64,000 bases of DNA from Escherichia coli (GCF_013315695.1 NZ_CP054355.1), one strand, 5' to 3'; positions 28,577 through 38,651 are shown, counted from the first letter of the stretch. Numbers and translations: made by a program. Notes: generated by a model from the letters alone, not told the origin.

Positions 28577-29062
28577 TTACTCCGAGATAAAAACCTCATA
28601 CTTAATATTGCGGGCGCAATAAAAAGTGCCGTCCGTCAGATACAGTTCACGAAATCGCGTGTTATCAGAGATGTTGTCCAGCAGGGAACGTTCCGTATCG
28701 ACAAATTCTTTTTGCACGCGGTAATGAACGGCGTTCTCCGTTTCAAAAGAGACATATTCCGTGGTGGCGTAGGGCTTATTTTTTGATTTCACGTACACGA
28801 TATATTGCACGGTACTGGCCGTCAGCCCCGTTTTCGCCGCGATCTCTTTGAGACTCAACGTCTCAGAGGCATAAAGCGCCTGAACCTGCGCTATGCGTCG
28901 GTGATTATACGCCGTCACCCGAAGGCTCAGTTTCAGCCGATAGGCCATATTCCGCACGGCGGTAATATTAGTGTGAAGCAGTTGCGCTATCTGCTCTGTC
29001 GTGAGGATGCCCGCGTTTTCCCGCAGAATCGCAAGGCTTTCGTCGTTCCAGATAAATGCCAT
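28577..29062 (-). CDS. Putative DNA-binding protein with two helix-turn-helix-like segments, last gene of FTR1-P19 cluster
   Basis: 161 aa; segments LTTEQIAQLLHTNITAVRNMAYRL and LSLKEIAAKTGLTASTVQYIV. Confidence 0.4.
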   Translation of the reverse strand: MAFIWNDESLAILRENAGILTTEQIAQLLHTNITAVRNMAYRLKLSLRVTAYNHRRIAQVQALYASETLSLKEIAAKTGLTASTVQYIVYVKSKNKPYATTEYVSFETENAVHYRVQKEFVDTERSLLDNISDNTRFRELYLTDGTFYCARNIKYEVFISE

Positions 29063-29086
29063 TGGGTATCTCTCCGTACGCGTCGT

Positions 29087-29572
29087 TCATCGCGCCGCCA
29101 GGCGCGCAAACGTGGTCTCTAACTCAGACGGCTTACGCATACCCTGGTGTAGCTCCAGAACGCGTCCTTCGGAGTCAATCAGTACGGAGGTCGGCGTGCC
29201 GATCACCTGATAACGTTCCTGGGTAATGTTGAGCTGATCGCGCACCACCGGATAGGTTATCTGATGTTTTGCCAGCAGATCGTTGATCCTGACCGTTTCA
29301 GGGTCGGTATTGACCGCCACAACCACCACTTTATCGCCCCATTTTTTGCTCAGCGCTTCCAGCGTGTCCATTTCCGCTAGGCACCCCCCGCATCCCGCAG
29401 ACCAAAAATTCAGGTACACCGCCTTTCCTTGCCAGCGTTCAAGGCCTGACTCCTGGCCTTGCAGATCAAACGCCGCCAGCGCCGGGGCCGGTGCCCCGAC
29501 CGCCAGCTTTTCTTCTTTACACCCGCTTATCAGGATCGCCGCCGCGAGTAACAGCACATTATGCCAGCGCAT
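29087..29572 (-). CDS. TlpA/ResA-like periplasmic thiol:disulfide oxidoreductase lipoprotein
   Basis: ORF 29087..29641, likely start MRWHNV; CGGC active-site motif; thioredoxin fold pattern. Confidence 0.7.
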   Translation of the reverse strand: MRWHNVLLLAAAILISGCKEEKLAVGAPAPALAAFDLQGQESGLERWQGKAVYLNFWSAGCGGCLAEMDTLEALSKKWGDKVVVVAVNTDPETVRINDLLAKHQITYPVVRDQLNITQERYQVIGTPTSVLIDSEGRVLELHQGMRKPSELETTFARLAAR

Positions 29573-30254
29573 GTTGATTGGCCTCCTCACCCAGATATTT
29601 ACCGTGTTGCAGCCGCAGAATACGGTCGGCAAACTGCCCAAGCGCAGGGTTGTGCGTCACCATCACAATCGTGCGCCCCTGACGATGCAGATCGGTGAGC
29701 AGATCCAGCACCCGCTGCTCATTCTCTTCATCCAGGTTGCCCGTCGGTTCATCCGCGAAAATAACCGGCGGTTCGTTGACCAGCGCCCGGGCGATACACA
29801 CACGCTGCTGCTCACCACCGGAAAGCTGGCTCGGCAGGTGCGTCACACGATGCCCAAGCCCTACCTGTTCCAGCACCTTCCTCGCCGCCGCTTCATCCAC
29901 CACGCTGTGGTAATGCTGGGCGAGCATGATGTTTTCCAGCGCAGTTAAGAACGGGATCAAATGGAACTGCTGAAATACCAGGCCGATTTTCTCGGCGCGA
30001 AAGCGACGGCGCCCCTCTTCATCCAGCGCGGCGGCATCGGTGCCATCAAGAAACACCTGCCCTTCCGTCGCCGTATCAAGGCACGTCAGAATATTCATCA
30101 GCGTGGTTTTACCAGAACCAGAAGCGCCCATAATGGCGACAAATTCACCCTGCGCAATGCGCAGATTAATGTCATCCAGGGCGGTAACGTCACCGAACCG
30201 TTTGTATAAGTGGCGGGTTTCGATCGCCACCTGAGGGATATGCGTAACGGACAT
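29559..30254 (-). CDS. ABC transporter ATP-binding protein (LolD/MacB-like)
   Basis: 231 aa; Walker [10 protein letters not shown], signature LSGGEQQR, Walker B. Confidence 0.85.
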
Positions 30255-30258
30255 GGCG

Positions 30259-36948: not shown

Positions 36949-37710
36949 TCAAAGATTAAGGTTATTTCGATCGCTGGCAAGACGCTGTAAGAATTGACCA
37001 TATCCCTGCGGCCCCATCCAGTAGTTAATACTTTTCTCAACGCCGGTTGATGTCAACGTCGCACCGGAAATACCGTCAACGGTATATTCATCGGCATGTT
37101 CAGGTTTATCCTGTACTATTTTCAATGCAGGATGTCCGCTGTTATCTAATAATCGTTTCCCTGGCCACTGTTTGCGCCAGTTGGCGTCTTCCACCCTAGC
37201 CCCCAGAAACGGCGTTTCCCGTTGCTGATAATAATACAGATTTCTCACCGTACGACCGTCCAGCCCCAGAGCAAGAAACGCATGCATCATGGATTTCGCG
37301 CCCTTACCGGTAACTGGAATGATAACCTGCTGAATTTCATTATTTTTATCTTTCACAAAGAACACATCCGCCACCGTACAGCGCTGACGAACCTGCGCTG
37401 GGTCGCGTTCAGGGGCAAGTTTTTCACACTTCTGCCGCGCGGTGTCCGCGCTGCTGCCAGCCACCAGTTCGCCGGAATCTAAATTAACATGGCGTTGAAT
37501 AATATAACGATGATAGAGCGTTTCGACTGATTTTTTATCCTGGGTCTCTGATTTCATCAGGCCCGCAGCGTGTAAAATTGCCGCCTGTTTTTCCTCCTCT
37601 GTCGGCTCCGTCATTTCTCCCTGGAACAGCATAAACCATGCCGCCGCCGCAACAAAAATAAGGACACAAAGCACCATCATTGATGCAACAATAATTTTAC
37701 CCTTGCGCAT
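36949..37710 (-). CDS. FMN-binding domain protein (NqrC/RnfG-like, flavinylation motif DGISGATLTS)
   Basis: ORF 36949..37764, likely start MRKGKIIV with TM anchor; S/TGAT motif near C-terminus. Confidence 0.6.
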   Translation of the reverse strand: MRKGKIIVASMMVLCVLIFVAAAAWFMLFQGEMTEPTEEEKQAAILHAAGLMKSETQDKKSVETLYHRYIIQRHVNLDSGELVAGSSADTARQKCEKLAPERDPAQVRQRCTVADVFFVKDKNNEIQQVIIPVTGKGAKSMMHAFLALGLDGRTVRNLYYYQQRETPFLGARVEDANWRKQWPGKRLLDNSGHPALKIVQDKPEHADEYTVDGISGATLTSTGVEKSINYWMGPQGYGQFLQRLASDRNNLNL

Positions 37711-37946
37711 TGAATTGTTATCCCTGTCAAAATGGAAATCGAAAAAATCGCCTGAACGTATCACAGACTTTCATTCAATTAAAACAGATATGCCATTATC
37801 AATTCAGGTTTGCAACGTCAGGCAGCGGTAAAAAATAATAACTGGCGTCGGTAAAAAAGCAGCAAAAATAACAGAAAACACGCTCTCCGCTCGTTTTACA
37901 CATCCTTACAATGGGTTAAAAAATGCCGGGTTTCCCCGGCACGCTA

Positions 37947-38453
37947 TCAAAACATGGCTGCCCGCCACAGACGTAACTTCATGCCCCAGTAGCTGGTCCA
38001 GCCGCTGGTCGTAGTTACCACCTGCCCCTTCGACACCACCACCAGCGTTGGCGTGACGCTGATTTCCCAGTTTCGTGATATCTCACCGCCGCTATCATTC
38101 ACGACGGGGAACGTCACCCTTTTACGCGATAACCAGCGGGAAACCTCCCCGTCATTACCGGAACGCAGCGCGATGGTCATGACGCTCTCCCCTTCCGACT
38201 GCAAACGGGCGACATCCGGCGTGGTGAAACGGCAGATACCGCACCAGCTCGCCCAGAAGTAGAGCAGCACCGGGCGTTCTTCACTGATCGACGCCAGCGT
38301 TACGGTTTCCCCGTCCAGCGTATGCAGCGGCGTGCTGTCAAACATGGCCGGCATCTGCGGAGAACGCCAGACATCCAGCAGGATTATCACGCCAGCCAGC
38401 AGAACCAGTAAGATCGCGCCTTCACGCAGCCAGCGGCGCAGTTTACTGAGCAT
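37947..38453 (-). CDS. Membrane-anchored TlpA/ScsD-like thioredoxin
   Basis: 168 aa; N-terminal TM; WASWCGICR active site. Confidence 0.65.
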   Translation of the reverse strand: MLSKLRRWLREGAILLVLLAGVIILLDVWRSPQMPAMFDSTPLHTLDGETVTLASISEERPVLLYFWASWCGICRFTTPDVARLQSEGESVMTIALRSGNDGEVSRWLSRKRVTFPVVNDSGGEISRNWEISVTPTLVVVSKGQVVTTTSGWTSYWGMKLRLWRAAMF

Positions 38454-38613
38454 GGGCCACCGCCAGTTTTTCTTTCACCACCGCCTCAAGGGTCTCCCAC
38501 GATACCGCGCCGGGGATCATCTCGTCGCCAATGATGGTTGCCGGCGTCCCCTGAACGCCAACCAGCCGGGCGAGTTGCAGATTGGTGCTCAACGTCTCCA
38601 TGCTTTTCTCATC
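38443..38613 (-). pseudogene. DsbA/ScsC-like oxidoreductase, C-terminal fragment; 5' end replaced by a Tn3-family-like repeat
   Basis: ORF 38443..38670; native part ...GVQGTPATIIGDEMIPGAVSWETLEAVVKEKL; upstream codons derive from the 38-bp repeat. Confidence 0.5.
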
Positions 38614-38651
38614 GGGGTCAGTTTGGATATAGAGAATTATTGTACTATAAG
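38614..38651. repeat. Tn3-family-like 38-bp terminal repeat (GGGG...TAAG)
   Basis: ggggtcagtttggatatagagaattattgtactataag; copy of the repeat at 24293..24329. Confidence 0.45.

Follow-up and report, generated by a model that had tools for sequence, protein, structure and literature searches.

A known FetMP-Fls iron-uptake locus on an Escherichia coli plasmid and the NqrC-like gene beside it

We have analysed a stretch of 64,000 nucleotides of Escherichia coli DNA (GCF_013315695.1, NZ_CP054355.1), referred to here as the window and numbered from its first letter. We find that a co-directional gene run on its minus strand, from ~27.8 kb to 38.6 kb, is best explained as a whole as the FetMP-Fls iron-uptake locus, a system that has already been characterised; we put the probability of this reading at about 0.85. 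FetM is published as an FTR1-type inner-membrane iron permease and FetP as its periplasmic copper- and iron-binding partner of the P19 family, which assists it. Comparison with known fetMP systems, proposed as a check in a first-pass annotation of this DNA, leads to two systems, the FetMP that Koch et al. (2011) described in uropathogenic E. coli F11 and the FetMP-Fls of the Salmonella plasmid pUO-StVR2, which are the same element with no difference of substance. Because the segment is the very locus described in these two settings, the finding is known rather than new, and the core of the annotation is correct but already explained. As a determinant of fitness and virulence that is carried together with resistance genes on IncF plasmids, the cluster has a clinical relevance that has been described. 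What we add is the Citrobacter-type chromosomal origin of the plasmid segment, the recognition of its Scs genes as debris, and the observation that within one clade of enterobacteria a stand-alone copy of nqrC appears to accompany fetMP as a conserved partner under selection.

Identity with published FetMP-Fls systems

The mature FetP encoded in the window (residues 25-176) has the same sequence as the E. coli FetP of known crystal structure (PDB 3NRP/3NRQ; 100% identity), which places it in the P19/FetP family, and it also matches Pfam PF10634 (E=7e-70) and the P19 protein of C. jejuni (PDB 3LZL, E=7e-59). At the DNA level a 10.4-kb stretch is 100% identical to pCE10A, which types as IncFIA/IncFIB, and many IncF plasmids match it at 99.8% or more, among them pVR50B (99.8%), a plasmid catalogued among the homologues of the Campylobacter cluster (Liu et al. 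2018, PMC6083913). The segment is found in 852 of the 5,426 complete E. coli genomes in RefSeq (~16%); identity is at least 99% in 857 of the 858 matching RefSeq records, and plasmids account for 886 of 900 places. At least 80% of the segment is found on 812 plasmids in PLSDB. The plasmid location that had been annotated is thus borne out by the database matches, almost all of which lie on plasmids.

Garcia et al. (2020, PMC7285068) describe the same cluster on pUO-StVR2, where its genes run fetMP-flsDABCT-flsE-flsF, a Fur box is present and IS26 flanks the cluster; it is there that the histidine-phosphatase gene is called flsF. Deletion of fetMP-flsDA lowered cellular iron about five-fold and impaired iron-limited growth, invasion and intramacrophage replication, and the cloned genes raised all three in a naive strain (PMC7285068). 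These results bear on the alternative that the main task of the cluster is to transport or detoxify another metal (copper, manganese or zinc). P19/FetP does bind copper, the YHS domain of FlsD is of a kind often associated with copper, copper-tolerance scs genes lie nearby, and the authors themselves remarked on a growth benefit even with ample iron (PMC7285068). Nevertheless, inductively coupled plasma mass spectrometry of the deletion mutant showed a five-fold loss of iron with manganese and zinc unchanged (PMC7285068), a Fur box is conserved at fetM, and iron-dependent phenotypes have been published for E. coli, Campylobacter and Yersinia; we therefore consider a primary role with another metal very improbable and retain iron uptake as the function of the locus.

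Pfam and NCBIfam scans recover the co-directional minus-strand run with the domains that the first-pass annotation gave it. FetM matches the FTR1 domain (Pfam PF03239, E=7.5e-43; NCBIfam EfeU/Ftr1) over residues ~385-593 of 646 only (NCBIfam); its translation contains two RExxE motifs, REGLE and REGAE, and a periplasmic N-terminal domain of ~380 amino acids (aa) that opens with the signal-peptide-like sequence MRNFRNSLLVTLFGLFISMSVWA. An FTR1 domain with two RExxE motifs behind a large, signal-led periplasmic domain is what characterises the FetM subgroup of the FTR1/ILT family. FlsD matches Pfam PF10080 (E=3.5e-28) and YHS (E=1e-16), and its translation carries the cysteine motif CLLC-x13-CVAC-x14-C. 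This agrees with the motif CxxC-x13-CxxC-x14/15-C described in the DUF2318 domain of Campylobacter Cj1660/1651 (PMC6083913), as expected of a FetMP-Fls system. Both MacB_PCD and FtsX are found in FlsA and in FlsB (Pfam, NCBIfam), and the best NCBIfam matches of FlsC are FtsE, LolD, YbbA and MacB. FlsABC is therefore predicted to be an ATP-binding cassette (ABC) system of the MacB/LolCDE/FtsEX type (type VII), with FtsX transmembrane domains, a MacB-like periplasmic core and a LolD/FtsE-like ATPase. FlsT, in which we read a LISGC lipobox and a CGGC active site, is probably a lipoprotein.

The gene order (FTR1, P19, DUF2318 membrane protein, two FtsX-type permeases, ABC ATPase, thioredoxin-like protein) is the same in 80 genome loci, which we collected by a FetP scan of species-representative genomes and compared gene by gene with tblastn. 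This gene-by-gene comparison supports both the FTR1 and the P19 (FetMP-like) assignments that had been made for the window. Because neighbouring genes from fetM to flsE either overlap or lie 24-103 bp apart, they probably form a single operon. The features of the locus and its surroundings are collected in Table 1.

Table 1. Features of the FetMP-Fls locus and its borders, in window coordinates
Feature	Position	Strand	Description
flsF'	27712..28455	-	N-terminal fragment of a histidine (acid) phosphatase; Pfam His_Phos_2
flsE	28577..29062	-	161 aa; two weak helix-turn-helix-like motifs; PHROG 323
flsT	29087..29572	-	TlpA/ResA-like thiol-disulfide oxidoreductase; NCBIfam ResA/TlpA, Pfam Redoxin/AhpC-TSA
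flsC	29559..30254	-	ABC ATPase, MacB/LolD/FtsE type; Pfam ABC_tran, NCBIfam
flsB	30259..31389	-	MacB_PCD and FtsX permease-like subunit; Pfam, NCBIfam
flsA	31379..32662	-	MacB_PCD and FtsX permease-like subunit; Pfam, NCBIfam
flsD	32665..34044	-	polytopic membrane protein, FtrD-like (former DUF2318) with C-terminal YHS; Pfam
fetP	34148..34678	-	periplasmic P19-family copper/iron-binding protein; Pfam PF10634
fetM	34716..36656	-	FTR1/ILT-family iron permease; Pfam FTR1, NCBIfam EfeU/Ftr1
Fur box	36681..36695		perfect 7-1-7 palindrome at the fetM promoter
Palindrome ATGATCCAGGTCAT	36717..36730		FNR/CRP-type TGA-N6-TCA site, upstream of the Fur box
Stem-loop 3' of nqrC-like gene	36880..36915	-	found by fold energy; likely terminator or transcript stabiliser
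nqrC-like gene	36949..37710	-	253 aa, FMN_bind; orphan paralogue of Na+-NQR subunit C
scsD intrinsic terminator	37923..37942	-	GC-rich hairpin followed by T-run; conserved in Citrobacter
scsD	37947..38453	-	membrane-anchored thioredoxin-like, CGIC; Pfam Redoxin/Thioredoxin
scsC'	38443..38613	-	3'-terminal 56 codons of scsC (DsbA-like product); non-functional remnant
IS110-family (IS1618-like) 3' remnant	38614..39203	-	88.5% identity to IS1618/IS110-family elements

The assignment of the last gene of the operon is more equivocal. FlsE had been annotated as a helix-turn-helix protein, and a regulatory role is suggested by the match of its residues 5-89 to PHROG 323 'transcriptional regulator' (E=2e-11); on the other side, Pfam gave no significant match (best E ~3e-3) and a PDB search returned no relative. 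A prolyl-aminopeptidase match in NCBIfam (E=5e-4) is far below the cut-off and was set aside as noise. The ratio of non-synonymous to synonymous substitution rates (dN/dS) of flsE is 0.05-0.09, its orthologues are 74-78% identical and come from Citrobacter only, and the gene is restricted to Citrobacter-type loci and these plasmids.

We note that the RefSeq FetM is 628 aa long and starts at 36602, by which the signal-peptide-like N-terminus is lost. Since FetM orthologues are 646 aa long and the signal-like N-terminus is obtained with a GTG start at 36656 (window 34716-36662), the deposited start probably makes the protein too short.

Among related systems, FetMP-FetABCDEF of C. jejuni (cj1658-1665; PMC6083913, PMC10783030) is iron-regulated, shares the first six genes in order followed by a thioredoxin-like gene, and shares the DUF2318 motif CxxC-x13-CxxC-x14-C, although amino-acid identity with FetMP-Fls is only 27-57% (PMC7285068). 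FetMP-FlpDABC of Yersinia pestis and other chromosomal loci of Enterobacterales and Pasteurellaceae form an orthologous set with 60-89% identity and a Fur-type box upstream, but have no nqrC-like gene within 10 kb, and an FNR-type site that is perfect in Yersinia is degenerate in the window. FtrABCD (Bordetella/Brucella) and EfeUOB likewise combine an FTR1-type permease with periplasmic partners and couple a redox step to transport; FtrA is a P19 homologue, and FetP matches PDB 8VV5 and 7R4Z. The window, however, has no cupredoxin (FtrB), polyferredoxin (FtrD) or peroxidase (EfeB), and has instead a MacB-type ABC module, a DUF2318/YHS protein and a thioredoxin.

The classes to which the Fls proteins belong suggest how they might assist FetMP. 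In transporters of the MacB/Lol/FtsEX class, ATP hydrolysis in the cytoplasm drives work in the periplasm and not the import of a solute. Because FlsABC falls into this class, ATP-driven periplasmic work would be likelier for it than substrate import. FlsD, with its cysteine-rich periplasmic domain and YHS domain, and the lipoprotein thioredoxin FlsT would then supply thiol or metal redox chemistry for P19/FTR1. Two points weigh against this scheme: the roles of FlsABC, FlsD and FlsT are ones that we infer from their sequences, and the thioredoxins of Campylobacter behave as oxidases (Richardson-Sanchez et al. 2023, PMC10783030). The literature leaves the direction of electron flow, reduction or oxidation, unsettled (PMC10783030). 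FetP has been proposed to act as a ferric reductase (Koch et al., as cited in PMC7285068), and the downstream fet genes are each required in Campylobacter (PMC10783030).

Origin and borders of the captured segment

Judging from gene order and identity, the segment is a ~10.8-kb piece of a Citrobacter-type chromosome that was captured between insertion sequences on an IncF plasmid. Citrobacter chromosomes carry, all in the same orientation, scsA, scsB, scsC, scsD, the FMN_bind gene, fetM, fetP, flsD, flsA, flsB, flsC, flsT and flsE. Amino-acid identity to Citrobacter is 96% for FetP, 91% for FetM, 90% for FlsD and 82-87% for the ScsC stub. The G+C content of the segment, 55-59%, is above that of the plasmid surroundings. 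The segment also reaches further downstream than had been annotated, to ~27825, and so includes flsF', where ~85% of the open reading frame (ORF) matches Citrobacter orthologues at 89-91% identity; the histidine-phosphatase gene lies slightly further downstream in Citrobacter chromosomes, and flsF is found only in a Citrobacter-type context.

Both borders are marked by insertion sequences. Downstream, flsF' is cut at ~27825 by an IS5-family (ISKpn26-like) element, and RefSeq lists it as an incomplete pseudogene next to ISKpn26. Upstream, the border at 38613/38614 is the 3' end of an IS110-family (IS1618-like, ~88% identical) element, and this remnant is itself cut by IS26 at ~39204. The Tn3-family repeat that the first-pass annotation held responsible for the truncation of scsC is therefore not the cause: the junction is 88% identical to the IS110 family, and the Tn3-family end lies ~1 kb further on. 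As a side observation, the scar is nested (38614-39600), the IS26 fragment being cut in turn at ~39580, where a Tn3-family transposon begins with its terminal repeat; the transposase gene of this transposon (995 aa) lies at 39607-42594.

The upstream thioredoxin and its truncated neighbour had been named ScsD-like and ScsC-like, and these names are appropriate. The full-length Citrobacter orthologue of the scsC stub matches Salmonella ScsC (PDB 4GXZ, named 'suppression of copper sensitivity protein') at E=4e-104, and the scsD product is 69-76% identical to its Citrobacter counterpart, which is encoded directly after scsB and scsC. Homology to the DNA of Citrobacter scsC starts at ~38613, so that the stub is a C-terminal fragment, and the two genes in the window are orthologous to the last two of the Salmonella/Citrobacter ScsABCD set, of which they are only a fragment. 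The proposal that the Scs-like genes extend the iron-uptake cluster functionally, such that the FMN protein (that is, the flavin mononucleotide-binding NqrC-like protein), ScsD, FlsT and FetMP make up one designed redox-coupled unit, fares less well. It draws on the intact scsD, which keeps its CGIC motif and has a dN/dS of 0.15-0.21 against Citrobacter, and on the complete scsABCD operon that lies co-directionally and immediately upstream of the fet locus in Citrobacter chromosomes. However, scsA, scsB (the DsbD-like supplier of reducing power) and three quarters of scsC are missing from the window, scsD closes with a terminator of its own, and ScsABCD is known as a copper-tolerance system. 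Moreover, the nqrC-like-fetMP unit occurs without adjoining scs genes in Klebsiella, Raoultella, Superficieibacter, Phytobacter, Sodalis and an Enterobacter sp., and some E. coli plasmids, at least, have lost scsD to IS26 with the nqrC-like gene and the fet genes left in place. A single designed unit with working Scs genes thus appears very unlikely, and the gene content indicates that scsD and the scsC stub are leftovers carried along from an adjacent copper-tolerance operon and no functional extension of FetMP-Fls.

Regulatory sites at the fetM promoter

Upstream of fetM lie, in order, a 286-bp spacer, the nqrC-like gene, scsD and the scsC stub. The Fur box that had been annotated at the fetM promoter, TGATAATTATTATCA, is a perfect 15-bp palindrome of the 7-1-7 type and the only perfect match in the 64 kb, where matches with at most two mismatches number 4 against 0.25 expected. 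It overlaps a -10-like hexamer, GATAAT, of the fetM promoter, and a Fur-type box is found 35-45 bp upstream of the fetM start in almost all of the Enterobacterales loci examined. At the level of sequence, the locus has the Fur box expected of the iron/Fur-regulated FetMP-Fls systems, and fetM to flsE would constitute a Fur-repressed operon.

A second palindrome, ATGATCCAGGTCAT, is invariant in the window, in Citrobacter and in K. oxytoca-type loci, ~35-43 bp upstream of the centre of the Fur box. If GATAAT serves as the -10 element, the centre of this site falls near -41.5, the position of a class II activator. Across 78 fetM loci, the FNR-type sequence TTGAT-N4-ATCAA at the equivalent position is perfect in Yersinia, has one mismatch in Budvicia, Pragia, Brenneria and Haemophilus, and is degenerate in the window. 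It is present with at most one mismatch in 25 of the 78 loci, as against 2.7% of shuffled controls, a difference that is suggestive and no formal test given that the loci are phylogenetically related. There are hints here of joint control of fetM by Fur and FNR (or another member of the CRP/FNR family), as for feoABC; our literature searches found no report of an FNR site at fetMP.

The NqrC-like gene upstream of fetM

The protein encoded between scsD and fetM scores 182 bits against the nqrC model TIGR01938 (cut-off 144) and 396 bits against NF003747 (NCBIfam), and its alignment with V. cholerae NqrC (PDB 7XK3 chain C, E=6e-49) spans the whole protein, with the N-terminal membrane anchor and the flavinylation threonine of SGAT included. 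The anchor is followed by a periplasmic FMN_bind domain with the flavinylation motif DGISGATLTS, and DG(I)SGAT is conserved in 11 orthologues. The window differs in having no nqrA, nqrB, nqrD, nqrE or nqrF nearby. Nor are there other nqr genes within 10 kb in any of the loci that have the nqrC-like gene, where the neighbours are fetM and scsD or unrelated genes, and the gene is thus no member of an nqrABCDEF operon. Because of this, and because E. coli to our knowledge has no Na+-NQR complex, the gene is an orphan paralogue and encodes no NQR subunit. We note that its RefSeq name, 'Na(+)-translocating NADH-quinone reductase subunit C', overstates its function and is misleading, and that the existence of a dedicated NCBIfam model (NF003747) means that the name is propagated systematically.

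Its position is well conserved. In Citrobacter, Superficieibacter, Klebsiella (oxytoca, spallanzanii and indica), Raoultella, Enterobacter sp. 10-1, Phytobacter and Sodalis, at least seven genera, the nqrC-like gene is the immediate upstream neighbour of fetM and is co-directional with it. The genes on its own upstream side, by contrast, differ, with at least five neighbourhoods (scsABCD; a 309-aa ORF; a 319-327-aa ORF with Ldh_2; a ROK-type regulator; yjdM). All nine relatives whose surroundings were inspected, three directly and six through named species among the fetP loci, adjoin fetMP. The gene is ~75% identical to Citrobacter at the amino-acid level and was kept in the plasmids from which IS26 removed scsD. 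Pairwise comparison with the window copy gives a dN/dS of 0.08-0.21, figures that are rough as dS is near saturation, and points to a gene under purifying selection.

The first-pass annotation saw in the flavoprotein and the permease a coupled unit of ferric reduction and uptake. One part of this stands, in that synteny, purifying selection and an intact flavinylation motif all argue for a partnership, and we give a functional tie of the NqrC-like protein to the Fet system slightly better than an even chance. It is also possible that the gene is a mere neighbour that was inherited with the locus and serves some other periplasmic flavin process or the host Rsx/Rnf, unrelated to iron uptake. To this alternative we assign a substantial but lesser probability, and several observations weigh on its side and against a partnership. 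The gene is monocistronic, with its own promoter region, the scsD terminator before it and a hairpin after it (dG -30.6 kcal/mol, z=-5.4) that separates it from the fetM promoter. No Fur or FNR sites were found ahead of it in the window, Citrobacter, Raoultella, Superficieibacter, Phytobacter or Sodalis. The 10 kb around fetMP do not contain the gene in Entomohabitans, Atlantibacter, Serratia, Brenneria, Pectobacterium, Yersinia, Budviciaceae or any of the Pasteurellaceae loci, and the C. jejuni system has two thioredoxins (FetE and FetF) and no FMN-binding gene. The locus encodes no membrane electron donor for the protein, and the roughness of the dN/dS figures tells in the same direction. 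Finally, the cloned sets that gave phenotypes, fetMP (of F11, as cited) and fetMP-flsDA, do not name the nqrC-like gene (PMC7285068).

Opposed to the view of a mere neighbour are the adjacency and orientation to fetM, kept in at least seven genera despite the differing upstream neighbours, and the finding that all nine inspected relatives adjoin fetMP. In K. oxytoca-type loci, and only there, a near-perfect Fur box precedes the nqrC-like gene. Furthermore, unrelated P19 clusters of Gram-positive bacteria independently carry FMN-binding genes (Liu et al. 2018, PMC6083913; Meheust et al. 2021, PMC8238504). In these clusters the gene for an extracytoplasmic flavoprotein of the ApbE type adjoins FTR1/P19 and has been proposed to encode a redox helper, so that FMN-binding proteins as redox suppliers of P19 systems are already in the literature. 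There the seventh gene, on the downstream side, is the FMN gene in place of a thioredoxin gene, whereas in the window a full-length NqrC paralogue lies upstream in a separate transcription unit and a thioredoxin is present too.

If the NqrC-like protein is indeed a partner of FetMP, a mechanism can be outlined. E. coli has apbE. The paralogue could be flavinylated by the host ApbE and so place FMN in the periplasm, where it would most likely be an accessory one-electron relay for Fet in the Citrobacter/Klebsiella/Raoultella/Sodalis clade, acting either as a reductase of ferric iron (or of the copper in FetP) or as an electron sink. A redox-helper role of this kind is plausible, and we place about even odds on a reductive and on an oxidative direction of electron flow. 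A more specific proposal is that the paralogue is a dedicated periplasmic flavin subunit of enterobacterial FetMP-Fls, recruited from an nqr operon and wired to the cysteine-rich domain of FlsD or to the copper site of FetP, giving a hybrid flavin-plus-thiol relay. We offer this tentatively, and think it somewhat more apt to be wrong than right; were it true, the FNR-type site and the Fur box would make the whole unit a low-oxygen device for ferrous/ferric uptake. The nqrC-like gene is a further candidate gene for the unsettled redox mechanism of P19/FTR1 iron transporters.

The literature that we searched contained no discussion of a Gram-negative clade with both an FMN-binding gene and a thioredoxin, and no paper linking nqrC and fetM. 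The pUO-StVR2 paper draws the upstream nqrC-like and scsD genes as 'additional genes', with no discussion of them found in those of its passages that we consulted (PMC7285068). Citrobacter, Klebsiella and PF10634 were not found in the searchable text on the supplementary tables of Meheust et al. (PMC8238504).

Two minor observations remain. Upstream of the nqrC-like gene (window 37760-37860), Citrobacter, the plasmid, Superficieibacter, Phytobacter and Sodalis share a conserved motif, TTGCAAA-N(~15)-TGGCATA. This probably represents a sigma-70 promoter whose -10 element is extended, a sigma-54 promoter being ruled out by the spacing; K. oxytoca-type loci have the near-perfect Fur box in its stead. 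In S. glossinidius the genes fetM, fetP and flsD are broken into fragments, and one C. amalonaticus and one Sodalis genome have an incomplete nqrC-like gene, such degraded parts of the locus being consistent with pseudogenisation in symbionts.

Elsewhere in the window, two overlapping Fur-like boxes (18523-18543) lie just upstream of plus-strand genes for proteins of 305, 258, 753 and 424 aa (18577-23952). The corresponding region of pCE10A carries a TonB-dependent receptor and senB/tieB, and these genes are probably the iron-regulated cjrABC-senB locus typical of pUTI89-like plasmids. Between 46000 and 64000 are minus-strand ORFs of 1756, 741 and 941 aa, known by size alone, and these are sizes that we take to be typical of traI, traD and traG of F plasmids.

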